The notes under the pieces were generated by a model. That model ran no database searches. It was given only the letters and a program-made list of their open reading frames with translations, and was not told the DNA's origin. Below, in pieces: positions 1 to 5,379 of a DNA stretch of 5,379 nucleotides (position 1 is its first letter; every line of letters begins with the position of its first letter). The DNA lies in IMG/VR virus record IMGVR_UViG_2537562119_000008; one strand, 5' to 3'. Made by a program: the position numbers and the translations under genes. The DNA is from a virus (Duplodnaviria; Heunggongvirae; Uroviricota; Caudoviricetes).

Positions 1-90
1 GCAAGGCTATACCAAAAAATCAGTGTAGGTTCAGAAAACGATGCACCATACAATCATCAATAATTTCAAATTGTCCATTGTGCATAAATC

Positions 91-133
91 ATAAAGAAAA
101 CCGCAGCACGTCGTATGCAAGAACGTGCTGCGG
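91..133 (-). terminator. Predicted intrinsic terminator-like hairpin distal to tI
   Basis: Perfect 10-bp inverted repeat CCGCAGCACG (101-110) / CGTGCTGCGG (124-133) with a 13-nt loop. On the minus strand it is followed by TTTTCTTTAT (reverse complement of 91-100). No T-tract follows it on the plus strand. Confidence 0.35.
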
Positions 134-292
134 TTGGCTGGTGAACTTTCGATAGTGCGAGTATTGAATGATTTCCAGCTGTTGCCGATTTTACTATGTT
201 TTCAGTAGAACACTTAGACAAAACTGAGGCACACAAATCTTTGCACTGGATTGCAAGGCTTTGTGCTTCTCTGGAGTGCGACATGTTTGATA

Positions 293-334
293 ACAAAAAA
301 TTAGCGCAAGAAGACAAAAATCACCTTGCGCTAA
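293..334 (-). terminator. tI / sib-region terminator hairpin downstream of int (lambda-like)
   Basis: Inverted repeat TTAGCGCAAG (301-310) / CTTGCGCTAA (325-334). On the minus strand it is followed by TTTTTTGT (reverse complement of 293-300). The minus-strand sequence GCGCAAGGTGATTTTTGTCTTCTTGCGCTAATTTTTT matches the lambda tI/sib hairpin as I remember it. Position is about 190 bp beyond the att core, as in lambda. Confidence 0.7.
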
Positions 335-575
335 TGCTCTGTCTCAGGTCACTAATACTATCTAAGTAGTTGATTCATAGTGACTGGATATGTTGTGTTT
401 TGTAGCATTATGTAGTCTATTTTTTAGACTAAAGATATTGTAACACATTGATATTAATGGTTTTTAATGTTTCGCGTTCAGCTTTTTTATACTAAGTTGG
501 CATTATAAAAAAGCATTGCTTATCAATTTGTTGCAACGAACAGGTCACTATCAGTCAAAATAAAATCATTATTTG
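328..575. other. attP: attP phage attachment site (lambda-type POP'), core at 481-495
   Basis: The 15-bp common core GCTTTTTTATACTAA is at 481-495. The P' arm (496-575, GTTGGCATTATAAAAAAGCATTGCTTATCAATTTGTTGCAACGAACAGGTCACTATCAGTCAAAATAAAATCATTATTTGATTTC) matches the lambda P' arm as I remember it. The P arm carries lambda-like sequence (AGGTCACTAATAC..., CATAGTGACTGGATATGTTGTGTTTT). The site abuts the 3' end of int. Phage-type sequence on both sides of the core indicates attP rather than a prophage attL/attR junction. Confidence 0.88.
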
Positions 576-1639
576 ATTTCAATTTTGTCCCACTCCCTGC
601 CTCTGTCATCACGATACTGTGATGCCATGGTGTCCGACTTATGCCCGAGAAGATGTTGAGCAAACTTATCGCTTATCTGCTTCTCATAGAGTCTTGCAGA
701 CAAACTGCGCAACTCGTGAAAGGTAGGCGGATCCCCTTCGAAGGAAAGACCTGATGCTTTTCGTGCGCGCATAAAATACCTTGATACTGTGCCGGATGAA
801 AGCGGTTCGCGACGAGTAGATGCAATTATGGTTTCTCCGCCAAGAATCTCTTTGCATTTATCAAGTGTTTCCTTCATTGATATTCCGAGAGCATCAACAT
901 GCAATACTGTTGGGATGGCAATTTTTACGCCTGTTTTGCTTTGCTCGACATAAAGATATCCATCTACGATATCAGACCACTTCATTTCGCATAAATCACC
1001 AACTCGTTGCCCGGTAACAACAGCCAGTTCCATTGCAAGTCTGAGCCAACATGGTGATGATTCTGCTGCTTGATAAATTTTCAGGTATTCGTCAGCCGTA
1101 AGTCTTGATCTCCTTACCTCTGATTTTGCTGCGCGAGTGGCAGCGACAGGGTTTGTTGTTATATGGCCTTCAGCTATTGCCTCTCGGAATGCATCGCTCA
1201 GTGTTGATCTGATTAACTTGGCTGACGCCGCCTTGCCCTCGTCTATGTATCCATTGAGCATTGCCGCAATTTCTTTTGTGGTGATGTCTTCAAGTGGAGC
1301 ATCAGGCAGACCCCTCCTTATTGCTTTAATTTTGCTCATGTAATTTATGAGTGTCTTCTGCTTGATTCCTCTGCTGGCCAGGATTTTTTCGTAGCGATAA
1401 AGCCATGAATGTAACGTAACGGAATTATCACTGTTGATTCTCGCTGTCAGAGGCTTGTGTTTGTGTCCTGAAAATAACTCAATGTTGGCCTGTATAGCTT
1501 CAGTGATTGCGATTCGCCTGTCTCTGCCTAATCCAAACTCTTTACCCGTCCTTGGGTCCCTGTAGCAGTAATATCCATTGTTTCTTATATAAAGGTTAGG
1601 GGGTAAATCCCGGCGCTCATGACTTCGCCTTCTTCCCAT
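569..1639 (-). CDS. int: Tyrosine recombinase, phage lambda-type integrase Int (356 aa)
   Basis: Full 356-aa ORF with ATG start. The translation (MGRRRSHERRDLPPNLYIRNNGYYCYRDPRTGKEFGLGRDRR ... HLLGHKSDTMASQYRDDRGREWDKIEIK) matches lambda Int as I remember it, including the C-terminal catalytic tyrosine motif (MASQY). The 3' end abuts the attP P' arm and the 5' end overlaps xis by 23 nt, as in lambda. Confidence 0.97.
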   Translation of the reverse strand: MGRRRSHERRDLPPNLYIRNNGYYCYRDPRTGKEFGLGRDRRIAITEAIQANIELFSGHKHKPLTARINSDNSVTLHSWLYRYEKILASRGIKQKTLINYMSKIKAIRRGLPDAPLEDITTKEIAAMLNGYIDEGKAASAKLIRSTLSDAFREAIAEGHITTNPVAATRAAKSEVRRSRLTADEYLKIYQAAESSPCWLRLAMELAVVTGQRVGDLCEMKWSDIVDGYLYVEQSKTGVKIAIPTVLHVDALGISMKETLDKCKEILGGETIIASTRREPLSSGTVSRYFMRARKASGLSFEGDPPTFHELRSLSARLYEKQISDKFAQHLLGHKSDTMASQYRDDRGREWDKIEIK

Positions 1640-1835
1640 TTCTGATCCTCTTCAAAAGGCTACCTGTTACTGGTCGATTTAAGTCAACCTTTACCGCTGA
1701 TTCGTGGAACAGATACTCTCTTCCATCCTTAACCGGAGGAGGGAATATCCTGCACTCGCGTACCCATCGACGAACTGTTTCAAGGCTTCTTGGGCGTCGC
1801 TGGCGTGCGTTCCACTCCTGAAGTGTCAAGTACAT
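1617..1835 (-). CDS. xis: Excisionase Xis (72 aa)
   Basis: The 72-aa translation MYLTLQEWNARQRRPRSLETVRRWVRECRIFPPPVKDGREYLFHESAVKVDLNRPVTGSLLKRIRNGKKAKS matches lambda Xis as I remember it. It sits immediately upstream of int and overlaps it, as in lambda. Confidence 0.95.
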   Translation of the reverse strand: MYLTLQEWNARQRRPRSLETVRRWVRECRIFPPPVKDGREYLFHESAVKVDLNRPVTGSLLKRIRNGKKAKS

Positions 1836-1865
1836 CGCAAAGTCTCCGCAATTACACGCAAGAAA
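1820..1865 (-). promoter_or_regulatory. PI promoter with cII-binding TTGC-N6-TTGC repeat, overlapping the xis start
   Basis: The minus strand reads CTTGCGTGTAATTGCGGAGACTTTGCGATGTACTTGACAC. The TTGC tetrads are the reverse complement of GCAA at 1858-1861 and 1848-1851, 6 nt apart. This is the classic cII-activated promoter architecture, and the lambda PI region lies in this position relative to the xis ATG (1835). Exact -10 and transcription start are not resolved here. Confidence 0.6.
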
Positions 1866-1887
1866 AAACCGCCATCAGGCGGCTTGG
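1862..1887 (-). terminator. Predicted intrinsic terminator overlapping the stop codon of the 55-aa ORF, just upstream of PI
   Basis: Minus strand reads AAGCCGCCTGATGGCGGTTTTTTCTT: a GC-rich stem CCGCC/GGCGG with a 4-nt loop, followed by six T. Confidence 0.45.
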
Positions 1888-2042
1888 TGTTCTTTCAGTT
1901 CTTCAATTCGAATATTGGTTACGTCTGCATGTGCTATCTGCGCCCATATCATCCAGTGGTTATAACAGTCGTTGATGTTCTCTGCTTCGATAACCCTGTT
2001 GAATGGCTCTCCATTCCATTCACCTGTGACTCGGAAGTGCAT
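1875..2042 (-). CDS. Small hypothetical protein (55 aa) between the accessory block and xis
   Basis: Not in the supplied ORF track (under 60 aa). ATG at 2042-2040 preceded by GGAG with a 7-nt spacer (minus strand ATGGAGATGATAAATG). Translation MHFRVTGEWNGEPFNRVIEAENINDCYNHWMIWAQIAHADVTNIRIEELKEHQAA. Its size (168 bp) and its 39-bp spacing from xis match the small unnamed ORF annotated next to xis in lambda, as I recall that annotation. Confidence 0.55.
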   Translation of the reverse strand: MHFRVTGEWNGEPFNRVIEAENINDCYNHWMIWAQIAHADVTNIRIEELKEHQAA

Positions 2043-2052
2043 TTATCATCTC

Positions 2053-2080
2053 CATAAAACAAAACTCGCCGTAGCGAGTT
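2053..2080 (-). terminator. Predicted intrinsic terminator-like hairpin between the 143-aa ORF and the 55-aa ORF
   Basis: 7-bp inverted repeat AACTCGC (2063-2069) / GCGAGTT (2074-2080) with a 4-nt loop. On the minus strand it is followed by TTGTTTTAT, immediately before the RBS of the 55-aa ORF. Confidence 0.35.
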
Positions 2081-2129
2081 CAGATATAATTTCCACCAAA
2101 GGCAGTAGTTGCTTGATGCTAAGAATTAT

Positions 2130-2561
2130 TCAATATCTATTCCTGTAATATCTTTTATCTTTTATCTTTTTCCTTGCAAAGCCTTTTGCTAGTGATTTTG
2201 AAACACTCATAAGTGTACTAATTCCCTCATCCTTAAAGTTTGTTTTTATAGCTTGCCAGACATCCTTTTGACGTAAGTCAGCAATAAAATCATGCCCTCT
2301 TGCTGTCAACCTCAGTGGTACTTCGATCCAACTATATCCAACACCTTCCCCTAACGCTTTGGACAATATATGACCGAACCCAGGTTTTCCATCAACCCTG
2401 ACTATTAATTCGTAGTCACATAATAATCGCATATGGAAAATAAAATCTTGGTCATATCTATTAAAGCCATTATCCTCTAGTTCACTAAGCATCGTGTCAG
2501 GGCCACGAGTTTTTTCGAATGCGATAAGTAGATCTTTTAGATATTGCTGGTCTAATTTCAT
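2130..2561 (-). CDS. Hypothetical protein (143 aa), AT-rich accessory gene with a basic C-terminal tail
   Basis: ORF with ATG start and a strong RBS (GGAGG, 5-nt spacer). Hand counts on two 60-nt samples gave roughly 27-37% G+C, against roughly 50% for a sample in int. The C-terminus is lysine/arginine-rich (KGFARKKIKDKRYYRNRY). I recognise no family with confidence; the N-terminal pattern weakly recalls small phage DUF-type proteins. Confidence 0.6.
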   Translation of the reverse strand: MKLDQQYLKDLLIAFEKTRGPDTMLSELEDNGFNRYDQDFIFHMRLLCDYELIVRVDGKPGFGHILSKALGEGVGYSWIEVPLRLTARGHDFIADLRQKDVWQAIKTNFKDEGISTLMSVSKSLAKGFARKKIKDKRYYRNRY

Positions 2562-2589
2562 TGCCGCCTCCGTGACATGTCACAGAGAT

Positions 2590-2928
2590 TTATATCATTA
2601 ATTTTGTTTCGTGCCAGCCTTTGGTCACCCAGCATTGTGAGTCACCATTACACGGGCATGAATTAACAGGAACTCTCTCGCCGCACTTACCGCACCGTTT
2701 TCTGCTGATCGATTTTATACGCCAGCGCACACGTGCATCATCCTGGCGGCTCAGTAACGCGATGTACTCACCAAACTCGCAAGGCGCACGCCTGAAGCGA
2801 CGCGTGGCACAGTTACGCTCCAGCATTTCAATTTCCTGAGCATCAAGTACAAGCTCCAGCTTACGCATACCGGATGATGCTTGCTTGGCTCTCTGATCGG
2901 CTTTGTGCTCTGTTGCTGATTTAGCCAT
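2590..2928 (-). CDS. Cys-rich hypothetical protein (112 aa), possible zinc-ribbon / Ea8.5-like protein
   Basis: ATG start with RBS AGGAAAAG about 8 nt upstream. One hand-counted 60-nt sample gave about 55% G+C, typical of the lambda-like flanks. The C-terminal half has a CxxC...CxC...C cluster (RKRCGKCGERVPVNSCPCNGDSQC). It lies 28 nt upstream of the 143-aa ORF. It is in the approximate position of lambda ea8.5 and of similar size if translation starts at the internal Met21 (92 aa). Homology to Ea8.5 is not verified. Confidence 0.55.
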   Translation of the reverse strand: MAKSATEHKADQRAKQASSGMRKLELVLDAQEIEMLERNCATRRFRRAPCEFGEYIALLSRQDDARVRWRIKSISRKRCGKCGERVPVNSCPCNGDSQCWVTKGWHETKLMI

Positions 2929-2969
2929 TCTGCTTTTCCTGCATCAGGAGAAAGACAATCATGGCGGCG

Positions 2970-3071
2970 CGGATACTTCCGGTATCTTTTTACGCGATAT
3001 TCCCCTTCAATGGCACATACAAGAAGAGAGCCATCAACAGGAGTGATTGAGGAATCGACAACCAGCAACGC
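2970..3071 (-). pseudogene. Remnant of an S24-family peptidase gene (UmuD / LexA / CI C-terminal-domain-like fragment)
   Basis: The minus-strand frame just after a TAA stop encodes LLVVDSSITPVDGSLLVCAIEGEYRVKRYRKYP. This aligns with UmuD [33 protein letters not shown] and with the LexA motif VARIDDEVTVKRL. No upstream coding sequence for the catalytic Ser (GDSM) motif was found in any frame, and similarity is lost after about 33 codons. The supplied 105-aa ORF (2751-3068) starts at TTG and otherwise looks like read-on into the 112-aa gene region. Confidence 0.5.
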
Positions 3072-3121
3072 TTAATTATCTATAGTGTCGTATTTGCTTC
3101 ATAAAATATGGCGAATAACAC

Positions 3122-3159
3122 AAAGCCCGCAGCAGCTCATTGTGCGGGCTTTTCTTATA
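3122..3159. terminator. Hairpin terminator downstream of the 204-aa secreted-protein gene
   Basis: 10-bp inverted repeat AAAGCCCGCA (3122-3131) / TGCGGGCTTT (3143-3152) with an 11-nt loop. The plus strand follows it with TTTTCTT; the minus strand follows it with a weaker TTTGTGTTATT. It lies in an AT-rich intergenic region 3' of the 204-aa gene. Confidence 0.45.
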
Positions 3160-3221
3160 CCTACTTCCTAGAGATAATTCTATGGAGGCATTAAATCAAT
3201 ACTGTCATTGGTAATATCATA

Positions 3222-3836
3222 TTATCTAAAAGTCTTTCCACTTTTAACATCTAGGTATATTCTGTTCGACAACGTCATTCCTCCGCAATATGTGAAATAG
3301 ATGTTTTCACCCTTATTGCTTGATGCCATCCACCCTCCGATTTCCTTAAAATCGCTTTCCGTGCAGACCCCTTCATTTATTAACTTCCTAGCTGCCGAAG
3401 AAAACTCTTTTTTGTATATACGGTAGTCATCAGATCCTTTGATTAAAGTATCATCTCCGCTCGCATTTTCAGCAGGATCTGATGGCCTTTCACTGCTAAG
3501 ATCACTAAGTTTAACCCATTCTGAAAACTTGCCATTAACGATTCCATTTTTTCTTGTGCAGGATTTATTACCTTCTTTAATATATTCGCTTTCCCCTCCA
3601 ACACATGAGGCTGAATATGGCTCAGTTATACGAACCCATTCACCTTTTTTTTCTAGAAAATCTACGCCTTCCCTGAAAAATAGTTTCCCAGCCACTCCAC
3701 ATTTACTTGAAGGGCAGGTATGTCTTTCCGTTCGATCAACAACAACCCATAGTTTTGATTCATTTTTTGCCATTGCCGATGGTATTTGAGATGAGACAAT
3801 TAACGTAAGCCCTAAAATTAGTATTGATTTTTTCAT
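3222..3836 (-). CDS. Secreted (Sec signal peptide) cysteine-containing protein of unknown function (204 aa), AT-rich moron
   Basis: ATG with RBS AAGGAA and a 6-nt spacer. The N-terminus MKKSILILGLTLIVSSQIPSAMA|KNE has a basic n-region, a hydrophobic core and an AxA-type cleavage site, with no lipobox Cys. The mature part has 6 Cys. Hand counts on two 60-nt samples gave roughly 33-38% G+C. Motifs GEWVRI and SEWVKL weakly recall SH3b-like folds. Confidence 0.7.
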   Translation of the reverse strand: MKKSILILGLTLIVSSQIPSAMAKNESKLWVVVDRTERHTCPSSKCGVAGKLFFREGVDFLEKKGEWVRITEPYSASCVGGESEYIKEGNKSCTRKNGIVNGKFSEWVKLSDLSSERPSDPAENASGDDTLIKGSDDYRIYKKEFSSAARKLINEGVCTESDFKEIGGWMASSNKGENIYFTYCGGMTLSNRIYLDVKSGKTFR

Positions 3837-4134
3837 TGTAATTTCCTTTTACTTTTTACAAAGCGTTTAATCATGGCTGATTATCTCTAAGTGTAGTAAC
3901 AGCCTTGTGCGAAACATGTTACCAAATCGCCATTTCAGTGTATCCGCAGTTAGGCTGCCACTTCAAGGATTCCTAATTACATGGTACGTAAGCGTAAAAT
4001 CCCGTTGGTTGGCGGGTAATAACTCTGATCAAATCTCCCTTGTCTTTTGCTCTTACGTATGCAGCTCTTGTGTATTCAACCCAGGCCTCCAGTTCAGCAA
4101 TACGCTTACTTCCATCCGAGATAACACCTTCTAC

Positions 4135-4386
4135 TCACGCTGCTCGTTGAGTTTTGATTTTTGCTGTCTCCAGCTCAACACGCAGTTTCCCCACCGTTAG
4201 CGCAATATCCTCGTTCTCCTGGTCGCGGCGTTTGATGTATTGCTGGTTTCTTTCCCGTTCATCCAGCAGTGTCAGCACAATCGATGGTGTTACCAGCTCA
4301 TGGAAAAGGTCCGCGTCAAATCCCCAGTTGTCAGGCATTGCCTGCTCTGCCGCTTCACGCAGTGCCTGAGAGTGAATTACGCTCAC
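4135..4386 (-). CDS. ea22: Ea22-like protein, N-terminal part (83 aa) ending at an in-frame TGA; likely a disrupted gene
   Basis: GTG start overlapping the stop of the upstream TraR-like gene (GTGA), at the position where lambda ea22 starts. The N-terminus MSVIHSQALREAAEQAMPDNWGFDADLFHELVTP... resembles the conserved N-terminus of Ea22-family proteins as I remember them. The frame continues open for 53 more codons after the TGA (see findings). Confidence 0.5.
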   Translation of the reverse strand: MSVIHSQALREAAEQAMPDNWGFDADLFHELVTPSIVLTLLDERERNQQYIKRRDQENEDIALTVGKLRVELETAKIKTQRAA

Positions 4387-4604
4387 TTCGAACCTCTCTG
4401 TTTACTGATAAGCTCCAGATCTTCCTGGCAACTTGCACAAGTCCGACAACCCTGAACGGCCAGGCGTCTTAGCTCATCTATGGGATCGCCACACTCACAA
4501 CAATGAGTGGCAGATACAGCCTGGTGGTTCAGGCGGCGCATTTTTATTGCTGTGTTGCGCTGTAATTCTTCAATTTCTGATGCTGAATCAATGATGTCTG
4601 CCAT
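4383..4604 (-). CDS. TraR/DksA-family C4 zinc-finger protein (lambda Orf73-like), 73 aa
   Basis: The translation has the C-x2-C-x17-C-x2-C zinc finger (CECGDPIDELRRLAVQGCRTCASC). This aligns with the F-plasmid TraR motif CEACGNPIPEARRKIFPGVTLCVEC. Length is 73 aa, and the stop overlaps the ea22-like start. Confidence 0.8.
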   Translation of the reverse strand: MADIIDSASEIEELQRNTAIKMRRLNHQAVSATHCCECGDPIDELRRLAVQGCRTCASCQEDLELISKQRGSK

Positions 4605-4656
4605 CTTCCATTAATCCCTGAATTGTTGGTTAATACGCTTGGGGGTAAATGCGAGC

Positions 4657-4680
4657 AATAAAAAAGGAGCCTGTAGCTCC
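4657..4680 (-). terminator. Weak intrinsic terminator-like hairpin between the 93-aa ORF and the TraR-like gene
   Basis: Stem GGAGC (4666-4670) / GCTCC (4676-4680) with a 5-nt loop. On the minus strand it is followed by TTTTTTATT (reverse complement of 4657-4665). The stem is short, so termination would be weak or partial. Confidence 0.3.
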
Positions 4681-4702
4681 CTGATAATTTTGCTTTTCAT
4701 GT

Positions 4703-4984
4703 TCATCGTTCCTTAAAGACGCCGTTTAACATGCCGATTGCCAGGCTTAAATGAGTCGGTGTGAATCCCATCAGCGTTACCGTTTCGCGGTGCTTCTTCA
4801 GTACGCTACGGCAAATGTCATCGACGTTTTTATCCGGAAACTGCTGTCTGGCTTTTTTGATTTCAGAATTAGCCTGACGGGCAATGCTGCGAAGGGCGTT
4901 TTCTTGCTGAGGTGTCATTGAACAAGCCCCATGTCGGCAAGCATAAGCACACAGAATATGAAGCCCGCTGCCAGAAAAATGCAT
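4703..4984 (-). CDS. Hypothetical protein (93 aa; alternative start at 4918 gives 71 aa)
   Basis: ORF with ATG at 4984. An internal ATG at 4918 overlaps the stop of a possible 27-aa upstream ORF (ATGA). No recognisable domain. It occupies roughly the position of lambda orf61 but does not match its size. Confidence 0.5.
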   Translation of the reverse strand: MHFSGSGLHILCAYACRHGACSMTPQQENALRSIARQANSEIKKARQQFPDKNVDDICRSVLKKHRETVTLMGFTPTHLSLAIGMLNGVFKER

Positions 4985-4998
4985 TCAGTGGTTGTCAT
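4915..4998 (-). CDS. Possible small hydrophobic peptide (27 aa), translationally coupled between orf63 and the downstream ORF
   Basis: ATG at 4998-4996 overlaps the orf63 stop (ATGA). Translation MTTTECIFLAAGFIFCVLMLADMGLVQ has a single hydrophobic, transmembrane-like core. Its TGA at 4917-4915 overlaps the ATG at 4918 (ATGA). Not in the ORF track (under 60 aa). It is mutually exclusive with the first 22 codons of the 93-aa reading. Confidence 0.25.
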   Translation of the reverse strand: MTTTECIFLAAGFIFCVLMLADMGLVQ

Positions 4999-5186
4999 AC
5001 CTGGTCTCTCTCATCTGCTTCTGCTTTCGCCACCATCATTTCCAGCTTTTGTGAAAGGGATGCGGCTAACGTATGAAATTCTTCGTCTGTTTCTACTGGT
5101 ATTGGCACAAACCTGACTCCAATTTGAGCGAGGCTATGTGCCATCTCGATACACGTTCTTAACTCAACAGGAGATGCTTTGTGCAT
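4995..5186 (-). CDS. orf63: Small early-left protein, lambda orf63-like (63 aa)
   Basis: 63-aa ORF with ATG start. Its size (192 bp), its 28-nt overlap with the upstream orf60a-like ORF and its distance from the exo stop all reproduce the lambda orf60a/orf63 arrangement as I remember it. The protein sequence itself was not verified against lambda. Confidence 0.6.
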   Translation of the reverse strand: MHKASPVELRTCIEMAHSLAQIGVRFVPIPVETDEEFHTLAASLSQKLEMMVAKAEADERDQV

Positions 5187-5341
5187 ACAGCCCCCCGTTT
5201 ATTATTTATCTCCTCAGCCAGCCGCTGTGCTTTCAGGGGATTTCTGATAACAGAAAGGCCGGGAAATACCCAGCCTCGCTTTGTAACGGAGTAGACGAAA
5301 GTGATCGCACCTACCCGGATATTATCGTGAGGATGCTTCAT
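5159..5341 (-). CDS. orf60a: Small early-left protein, lambda orf60a-like (60 aa from the ATG overlapping the exo stop)
   Basis: The ATG at 5341-5339 overlaps the exo TGA (5340-5338) as ATGA, giving a 183-bp ORF as in lambda orf60a. The ORF track starts 2 codons earlier, at the ATG at 5347. Translation MKHPHDNIRVGAITFVYSVTKRGWVFPGLSVIRNPLKAQRLAEEINNKRGAVCTKHLLLS. Confidence 0.6.
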   Translation of the reverse strand: MKHPHDNIRVGAITFVYSVTKRGWVFPGLSVIRNPLKAQRLAEEINNKRGAVCTKHLLLS

Positions 5342-5379
5342 CGCCATTGCTCCCCAAATACAAAACCAATTTCAGCCAG
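5338..5379 (-). CDS. exo: Exonuclease (lambda Exo / Red-alpha), 3' end only; gene truncated by the window edge
   Basis: The minus-strand frame entering from the right edge reads LAEIGFVFGEQWR then stop. This matches the C-terminus of lambda exonuclease (...DEALAEIGFVFGEQWR) as I remember it, and the stop overlaps the orf60a start as in lambda. Confidence 0.8.
   Translation of the reverse strand: MAEIGFVFGEQWR

Follow-up and report, generated by a model that had tools for sequence, protein, structure and literature searches.

A lambda-type phage attachment site with an HK97/434-type proximal P arm

The stretch of viral DNA analysed here (5,379 nucleotides, hereafter the window) holds the attP–int–xis–early-left region of a lambdoid phage. 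Att coordinates are given as window position minus 488, with the 15-bp common core at 481–495 as origin, and haplotype counts refer to a survey of lambda-core P arms in IMG/VR. The features of the locus are as follows.

293–342 (approximate), minus strand: region of the sib/tI retroregulation hairpin, which follows int on the leftward transcript.
340–359, plus strand: P1 arm-type Int site, with the motif CAGGTCACTAAT at 345–356; equivalent to lambda 'int 1' (27583–27602).
363–375, minus strand: core of IHF site H1, bottom strand AATCAACTACTTA; fits WATCAANNNNTTR in 65 of 65 haplotypes, 369–375 being part of the search pattern and hence invariant by construction.
377–386, minus strand: P2 arm-type Int site, bottom strand CAGTCACTAT; inside lambda 'int 2' (27615–27634).
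389–401, plus strand: Xis site X1, TATGTTGTGTTTT; same as lambda and present in 59 of 65 haplotypes.
402–408, plus strand: Xis site X1.5, GTAGCAT (lambda, ACAGTAT).
402–476, no strand: hypervariable P-arm block of fixed length, −86 to −12; holds 21 of the 25 window/lambda mismatches.
409–421, plus strand: Xis site X2, TATGTAGTCTATT; a single difference from lambda, at 419 (−69 G>A).
415–429, plus strand: 15-bp core of Fis site F, GTCTATTTTTTAGAC (lambda core, GTCTGTTTTTTATGC).
441–453, minus strand: core of IHF site H2, bottom strand TATCAATGTGTTA (lambda, TATCAATATATTA); an exact match to WATCAANNNNTTR.
454–476, no strand: A/T-rich H2 flank and spacer to the C site, with invariant TTT (463–465) and GTTT (469–472).
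481–495, plus strand: common core, 15 bp (C, overlap, C′), GCTTTTTTATACTAA; equivalent to lambda misc_recomb 27724–27738.
507–533, plus strand: IHF site H′, with an A6 tract at 507–512 and TATCAATTTGTTG at 521–533; same as lambda.
541–572, plus strand: arm-type Int sites P′1, P′2 and P′3; same as lambda and nearly invariant in the family.
569–1639, minus strand: int, lambda-type tyrosine integrase, 356 amino acids; 352 of 356 residues as in lambda Int.
1617–1835, minus strand: xis, excisionase, 72 amino acids; 71 of 72 residues as in lambda Xis.

The sites run in the order P1-H1-P2-X1-X1.5-X2/F-H2-C-O-C′-H′-P′1-3, and all the marks of a lambda-type attP are present (the core, the arm-type, IHF and Xis/Fis sites, the spacing, and adjacent int and xis genes). 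Arm-type Int sites follow the consensus (C/A)AGTCACTAT-like; the five in the window (P1, an inverted P2 and P′1–3) occupy lambda positions and orientations, and their motifs are identical to those of lambda. The predicted IHF sites H1, H2 and H′ all match WATCAANNNNTTR (a consensus reportedly due to Craig and Nash) at lambda positions, the core with its flanking C and C′ core-type sites (477–501) shows no difference from lambda, and the spacing between all att sites is that of lambda, without gaps from −188 to +112. The sib/tI region (300–342) is also unchanged in the alignment; its homologues are labelled 'sib retroregulation site' in the HK97 record and 'terminator' in the 434 record. An earlier note on this sequence had taken Int and Xis to be lambda-identical, which is slightly too strong: Int differs from lambda's by D81Y, H164P, A245V and I248V, and Xis by G59S. 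Among these residues, Int P164 and V248 are the family majority, as is Xis S59 (89 of 94 family members, 75 of the 94 having the exact window Xis protein), lambda's own Int H164 and I248 and Xis G59 being minority residues within the family, whereas Int Y81 is private to the window.

Alignment of 300–600 with lambda (J02459, 27543–27843) gave 301 columns with 0 gaps and 25 mismatches, at −145, −144, −129, −101, −86, −85, −82, −69, −61, −60, −58, −54, −53, −50, −48, −44, −42, −32, −29, −28, −27, −26, −22, −20 and −14. The 73 bp at 402–474 (−86 to −14) hold 21 of these, a divergence of 29% (10 transitions and 11 transversions), and none falls in 475–897, a span that takes in the core, P′ arm and start of int. 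The earlier note had described such a block, diverged from lambda at equal length beside a lambda-identical core and P′ arm, by comparison with a lambda P arm that it quoted; the pairwise alignment that it suggested bears the description out, with the quoted lambda string right base for base against J02459, the window string quoted beside it also right, and the window clearly distinct from lambda. Its distal P arm does not, as was claimed, simply match lambda: four substitutions lie there, including the G at 387 inside the quoted string. These four leave the arm-type motifs untouched, those at 343, 344 and 359 flanking the P1 motif (unchanged in all 65 haplotypes) and that at 387, the sole difference at P2, adjoining a motif that is itself inside the search pattern. 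Chance clustering of the mismatches is ruled out by both tests applied (hypergeometric P = 6 × 10−11 within the 301 bp; binomial P = 1 × 10−21 with the mismatch rate over all 1,863 bp of lambda-homologous DNA as background).

We also considered whether the block could be coding, because the record of Chlobot, the best overall match to the window, carries a 41-amino-acid 'hypothetical protein' over the P arm and core; the column pattern in the block tracks protein-binding sites rather than codons, and we therefore treat that gene call as spurious. Rfam models at gathering thresholds found no structured RNA across the whole window. A consensus scan of 1–700 for promoters and terminators, which also missed the tI hairpin and so says little about the block, found nothing in 400–480; its matches (two weak plus-strand hairpins at 239–281 and one promoter-like site inside int) were not meaningfully above shuffle expectation.

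The variability of the block is a property of the whole family of lambda-core P arms. An exact-pattern scan of IMG/VR with the H1–P2 junction recovered 96 P arms joined to a lambda core, comprising 65 haplotypes, all of lambda length; the seed patterns (window 369–386 and 483–495) make those positions invariant by construction and thus uninformative, and HK97, whose F site contains the 13-bp core string, is absent from this survey but included in the linkage test below. Prophage junctions, with CTTGAGCGAA after the core instead of the P′ sequence GTTGGCATTA, accounted for 71 of the 96, and P-arm length was kept in 96 of 98 sites, the remaining two being off by 1 bp. Mean pairwise difference was 20–22% in the block (−86 to −12), 4.4% from P1 to X1, 1.7% in the core and P′ arm, and about 1.2% in int at all positions or 2.65% at third codon positions, such that block diversity (approximately 20%) is around eight times that of int third codon positions. 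A further scan, with its seed at the end of int, yielded 115 lambda-core P′ arms, 96 of them the same as that of the window. A 45% 'diversity' of the sib region (228–339) in the ungapped comparison across phages was discarded as meaningless: the poly-A loop varies in length by 1 bp, which throws the sequences out of register.

Within the block, variation and constancy alternate on a fine scale. Entropy mapping placed the variable columns at −86 to −82 (X1.5), −79 to −75, −61 to −47 (F to H2), −44 to −41 (the NNNN of the IHF consensus), −32 to −26, −22 to −20 and −15 to −12, with a maximum of 1.88 bits at −53. By contrast with these columns, A-tracts, Xis repeats and arm-type Int motifs are invariant or nearly so: the H2 consensus WATCAANNNNTTR (bottom strand, −35 to −47) is exact in 59 of 65 haplotypes, the ends of the Fis core are kept (G−73 in 65 of 65, C−59 in 64 of 65), as are the pyrimidine–purine steps at −70/−69 (65 of 65) and −63/−62 (64 of 65), and both TTT at −25 to −23, the core of the A-tract beside H2, and GTTT at −19 to −16, to which no known contact corresponds, are invariant. 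All window/lambda differences sit at family-variable positions, and none of the 21 in the block is at a position known to be read by IHF, Fis, Xis or Int. X1.5, with three of them (−86, −85 and −82), is polymorphic across the family, and the window form is the commonest (23 of 65 haplotypes); the one changed position of X2 is one where lambda's own X1 and X2 disagree, and its Xis-contacted pair at −73 is invariant among haplotypes; and the changes in H2 are confined to the NNNN of the consensus. The window's Fis core GTCTATTTTTTAGAC is likewise the commonest (35 of 65), lambda's GTCTGTTTTTTATGC occurring in 3 of 65. Site pairs in the block failed the four-gamete test in 634 of 1,225 cases, adjacent sites included, a result that fits old, saturated alleles with repeated changes at the same positions.

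This pattern may be understood if positions −86 to −12 consist largely of spacer and of DNA recognised by its shape, not its base identity, and have to provide the H2 IHF bend, the bend at F (Fis/A-tract), support for the Xis filament and the exact helical spacing between P2 and the core. With needs only of shape and spacing, few positions and the overall length would be under selection, and the rest would have drifted close to saturation. The P′ arm is dense in binding sites and shows little variation, and the proximal P arm is rich in free positions. Thompson, Snyder and Landy are said to have described helical-phase dependence in attP in 1988–89, and Goodman and Nash reportedly found in 1989 that H2 is functionally replaceable by other bends. 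In the cryo-EM structures (PMC4880445), this stretch supplies the H2 IHF bend, the bend due to the A-tract and Fis, and the Xis filament by which P2 is positioned, and during model-building adjustment was permitted only in protein-free DNA, a picture that agrees with selection on geometry, not sequence, in this region.

The Fis/Xis interface is documented at the level of single bases. Through DNA shape, Fis brings Xis to X2; the C/G pair at position 7 is touched by both Fis Arg85 and Xis Glu19; and a pyrimidine–purine step at +3-4 is required, T-A, T-G and C-G keeping Fis–Xis cooperativity and T-C and C-C not (Hancock, Cascio and Johnson, PMC7145599). In that numbering, position 7 is −73 of the window and the 3-4 step is −69/−70. 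The position-7 pair is the same as in lambda, and −69 G>A, the only change inside the interface, converts the native C-A step to T-A, which we read as keeping Fis–Xis cooperativity because the T-A step is functional in vitro (PMC7145599).

Several differences could be taken to mean that the block is a functionally distinct regulatory allele, in which altered Fis, IHF and Xis site quality shifts the balance or efficiency of integration versus excision. Three substitutions in the 15-bp Fis core (−69, −61 and −60) turn its outer half-sites into a perfect inverted repeat (GTCTA/TAGAC), more symmetric than lambda's; H2 agrees, in inverted orientation, with the strong H′ site at 14/16 positions (lambda H2, 11/16); the T-tract adjoining H2 grows from T4 in lambda to T5; and X1.5 carries three substitutions. 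With the first three of these features, IHF or Fis affinity could be somewhat higher, and the excision set-point could hence differ measurably. We nevertheless regard a distinct regulatory allele as unlikely: all consensus and contact positions are intact, in vitro the T-A and native steps behave alike (PMC7145599), no other allele is as common in nature, this one combines freely with every int variant, and the 65 haplotypes form a continuum without a sharply bounded group, pointing to drift rather than to two functional classes. If, as we prefer, the block has drifted at free positions, all of the window's substitutions lie at such positions, and integration and excision should therefore run as in lambda; integration (Int and IHF) and excision (Int, Xis and IHF, helped by Fis) would then differ from lambda's at most quantitatively, and function is predicted to be equivalent.

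Comparison with named phages and bacterial genomes indicates that the window, not lambda, carries the ordinary allele. In the phage collection, identity to window 300–600 was 98.7% for HK97, 98.7% for ev099, 96.7% for HK106 and 95.3% for 434, versus 91.7% for lambda and its laboratory derivatives. A lambda-type X1-to-core stretch was found in 1,947 of 5,426 complete Escherichia coli genomes, with identities to the window of at least 99% in 179 (one exact), 95–99% in 524, 90–95% in 614 and 80–90% in 557; the exact match is to window 388–495 (108 bp, X1 through core) in one complete chromosome. The lambda-derived query, by comparison, matched 200 genomes at 99% or above and only 8 at 90–99%, and among the lambda-query matches listed, all 12 of 12 were 100% identical and came mostly from laboratory, K-12 or DE3 strains. 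With so few near relatives among E. coli genomes, the reference lambda P arm is the isolated allele, and the window lies in the main cloud.

The closest named relative, HK97 (AF069529/NC_002167, about 21049–21349), has the site order, core, P′ arm and length of the window and differs from 300–600 at only four positions (409, 427, 460 and 474); it has a lambda-type int, and its record reads 'attachment site core; identical to lambda att site core'. In HK97 a T at −61 gives an F region that repeats the core overlap perfectly over 13 bp, whereas the window, with G there, matches it at 12/13, and the DNA to the left differs, HK97 having tfa about 230 bp upstream of sib and no counterpart of window 195–292. 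Phage 434 (M60848; OL657226, about 24835–25135), which integrates at lambda attB, shares with the window the core, spacing, arm sites and H2 consensus; of the positions in −148 to +7, 23 differ between 434 and lambda, largely those that differ between the window and lambda, and 12 differ between 434 and the window, 434 having two substitutions just right of the core. Mascarenhas, Kelley and Campbell (Gene, 1981) reportedly set the att sequence of 434 beside that of lambda. Lambda itself shares the core, P′ arm, X1, P1 and P2 motifs, H1 and spacing, and its allele is rare outside laboratory strains. An HK022-type attP (AF069308/X51962) is ruled out by the lambda core and lambda-type int of the window: its distal P arm from P1 to X1 is nearly identical, with the same arm-site logic and similar length, but it has its own core (CCTTTAGGTGAATAA) and divergent proximal P and P′ arms, and the alignable attP and int stretch is about 72% identical in nucleotides, HK022 being of another integration specificity. 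From −86 to −14 the window shares the derived bases that set HK97 and 434 apart from lambda (its differences number 4 from HK97 and 25 from lambda over 300–600, and 12 from 434 over −148 to +7), and by sequence its P arm is assigned to a widespread HK97/434-type allele, already known and present in hundreds of E. coli prophages. The earlier note's suggestion of a natural variant of the excision control region accordingly holds in part: the X1.5/X2/F/H2 part is variant, beside a lambda-type core, P′ arm, int and xis, but it is neither new nor noteworthy, the allele being public (HK97 and 434) and its contacts and spacing intact.

The two sides of the core have different relatives. Chlobot is about 99.9% identical to the window right of the core, with three substitutions and one 7-bp indel over 4,900 bp, yet has 24 mismatches in 343–475, and a prophage (L104) shows a mismatch pattern like Chlobot's. 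Further left, Chlobot differs at 8 of 94 positions in 101–194 (8.5%) and has no homology in 195–292, which indicates that the whole left arm, not the block alone, is of different descent. An IMG/VR prophage junction (L017) has only two mismatches to window 1–499, one of them at 496, the first base past the core; window 340–495 (P arm and core) is exact in it, with non-phage flank directly after the core, so that integration of this P arm has taken place in nature. Together with the exact 108-bp match in a complete E. coli chromosome, this lends indirect support to recombination with the E. coli attB between gal and bio, excision being predicted to depend on Xis with stimulation by Fis. In 37 phages and prophages with both arms paired, distance in the P block was uncorrelated with distance in int (Mantel r = 0.015, P = 0.38), and 170 pairs with an int difference of at most 0.5% were still 22% apart in the block.

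We attribute the drop from 29% divergence to 0% at the core to separate histories of the att arms. Crossing-over at or near the shared core would reassort left arms (the P arm and DNA leftward of it) with right arms (P′–int–xis), and such reassortment is the simplest reading of these data. As to the kind of recombination, we infer that Int could have mediated the exchange, whether between two attP sites or with a resident prophage, or that it could have been homologous recombination within the invariant core and P′ DNA; the joint is placeable only between 475 and the first right-arm polymorphism (898 versus lambda, 1056 versus Chlobot), and both site-specific and homologous exchange therefore fit.

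That each half of the window has a closer relative elsewhere (the junction for 1–499; Chlobot and the L104 prophage for 481–5379), with the joint in DNA common to all lambda-att phages, is also what a chimeric assembly of two co-resident prophages through their shared core and P′ arm would produce, sequencing error being the other artefact to consider. We judge an artefact extremely improbable, given that an independent complete chromosome and an IMG/VR contig each contain the P-arm sequence without a mismatch, that the isolated phages HK97, ev099, HK106 and 434 carry intact attP sites of this allele family beside a lambda-type int, that arms are as a rule found in mixed combinations within the family, and that 21 clustered substitutions without an indel are unlike an error pattern. 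Arm reassortment in real phages is, in our view, the better account.

The contrast between 20–22% mean pairwise difference in the block and 2.65% at int third codon positions, together with the 634 of 1,225 four-gamete failures (indicating repeated changes, at adjacent sites too) and the entropy peak at −53, might instead point to locally raised mutation or diversifying selection rather than simply old neutral spacer (for example, selection for lower homology between co-resident lambdoid prophages, or for escape from a competitor's factor). The differences from Chlobot extend over the whole left arm, as an older left lineage would have it, the balance of transitions and transversions is that expected near saturation, and because the arms are unlinked, deep coalescence of the P arm is possible by that alone; we know of no mutational mechanism or selective agent for hypervariability of the block, and we consider this explanation highly unlikely. 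Alongside what is observed directly (the sequence itself, the pattern of conservation across the family and the unlinked arms), we favour with good confidence the reading that the window holds a working lambda-type attP with an HK97/434-type P arm, which has drifted at free positions, would function much as lambda's does and has come to its present right arm by reassortment.

The window's attP is on this evidence an ordinary wild lambda-type site, and its divergence mainly shows that laboratory lambda is atypical as a reference. The only mildly interesting point is the family-wide hypervariability with its lack of linkage to int, which needs population-scale confirmation; a literature search, in which the classical papers were thinly covered, found no paper describing the family-wide P-arm pattern. 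We put forward only tentatively the general proposition that in lambda-specificity att sites the proximal P arm (−86 to −12) is hypervariable and close to saturation yet constant in length, with about eight times the synonymous diversity of int and no linkage to it. If so, the att core would mark a natural module boundary, with constant reshuffling of the phage arms on its two sides; the wild alleles, in their thousands, would serve as an existing deep mutational scan of lambda intasome requirements; and some alleles (for example, those with a symmetric Fis core or an H′-like H2) may set different excision thresholds. That P arm and int are wholly unlinked is an example of a site-specific recombination site doubling as a mosaic joint in lambdoid genomes. 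For users of att tools and annotators of prophage ends, a proximal P arm that differs by 20–30% from the textbook sequence, with the known contacts intact, is to be expected. Independently of the crystallography that established them, natural variation points to the IHF consensus, Fis contacts and pyrimidine–purine step rule, and it also flags two invariant islands, TTT at −25 to −23, which fits the IHF A-tract element, and GTTT at −19 to −16.

The stretch of the Fis site at window 420-432 (TTTTTTAGACTAA) is a direct copy, at 12 of 13 positions, of the core string at 483-495 (TTTTTTATACTAA), and lies exactly 63 bp, or six helical turns, upstream of it. The match is complete (13/13) in HK97, as against 12/13 in the window, and falls to 11/13, counted by eye, in lambda. 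The core-like copy within the Fis site may reflect chance in T-rich DNA, a phased A-tract pair or the relic of a duplication. Nearer the core, a GTTT at window 469-472 (att coordinates -19 to -16), between the H2 flank and the core-type Int site C, was invariant or nearly so across the 65 P-arm haplotypes; we know of no base-specific contact at this position.

Small reading frames are annotated near this region in related phages; that of 434 lies immediately to the left of sib, where the record also marks two CII-binding sites:

434 (L003) 236-259, OL657226 24670-24693: CII-binding sites/small ORF (record annotation)
Chlobot (L118) 378-503, about window 370-495: 41-aa 'hypothetical protein' (record annotation)

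In the window, a 57-aa ORF (196-369) occupies a place similar to that of the 434 small ORF, and it had no match in the family searches. The 41-aa 'hypothetical protein', annotated across the attP P arm and core in the records of both Chlobot and Huey, is probably a spurious gene call.

Compared with lambda, HK97, Chlobot and other relatives, the DNA left of sib (window 1-292) is a mosaic: window 1-227 has no homology to lambda, window 91-194 matches HK97 (95%), Chlobot (91.5%) and others, and window 195-292 is absent from HK97 and Chlobot and is partly lambda-like from 228. By eye, a GC-rich hairpin is present at 101-133, followed by TTTTCTTT on the minus strand, and the two together form a possible second leftward terminator; the hairpin was not reported by a promoter/terminator consensus scan of window 1-700.

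The DNA between xis and the ea22-like gene (window 2091-4087) showed no homology to lambda, and holds the following:

2130-2561: DUF2513 (phrog_585) protein
2590-2928: phrog_536 transcriptional regulator
2751-3068: short UmuD-like fragment, in another frame and overlapping the phrog_536 regulator
3222-3836: 204-aa protein of unknown function (phrog_8310)

The window and Chlobot differ here by a 7-bp indel (window 2153-2159), which changes the C-terminus encoded by the DUF2513 gene.

Within Int and Xis, the window carries the wild majority residue at three positions where reference lambda is in the minority:

Int residue 164 (window 1149): P164 in 90 of 95 family members
Int residue 248 (window 898): V248 in 90 of 95 family members
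Xis residue 59 (window 1661): S59 in 89 of 94 family members

One further Int substitution, D81Y (window 1399), is private to the window: D is the residue in every one of the other 95 integrases of the family, and the underlying base differs from that in lambda, Chlobot, HK97 and the prophage L104 alike. Residue 81 lies in the linker region that joins the arm-binding domain to the core-binding domain, and the change may have arisen by mutation in this phage alone or through an error in sequencing.
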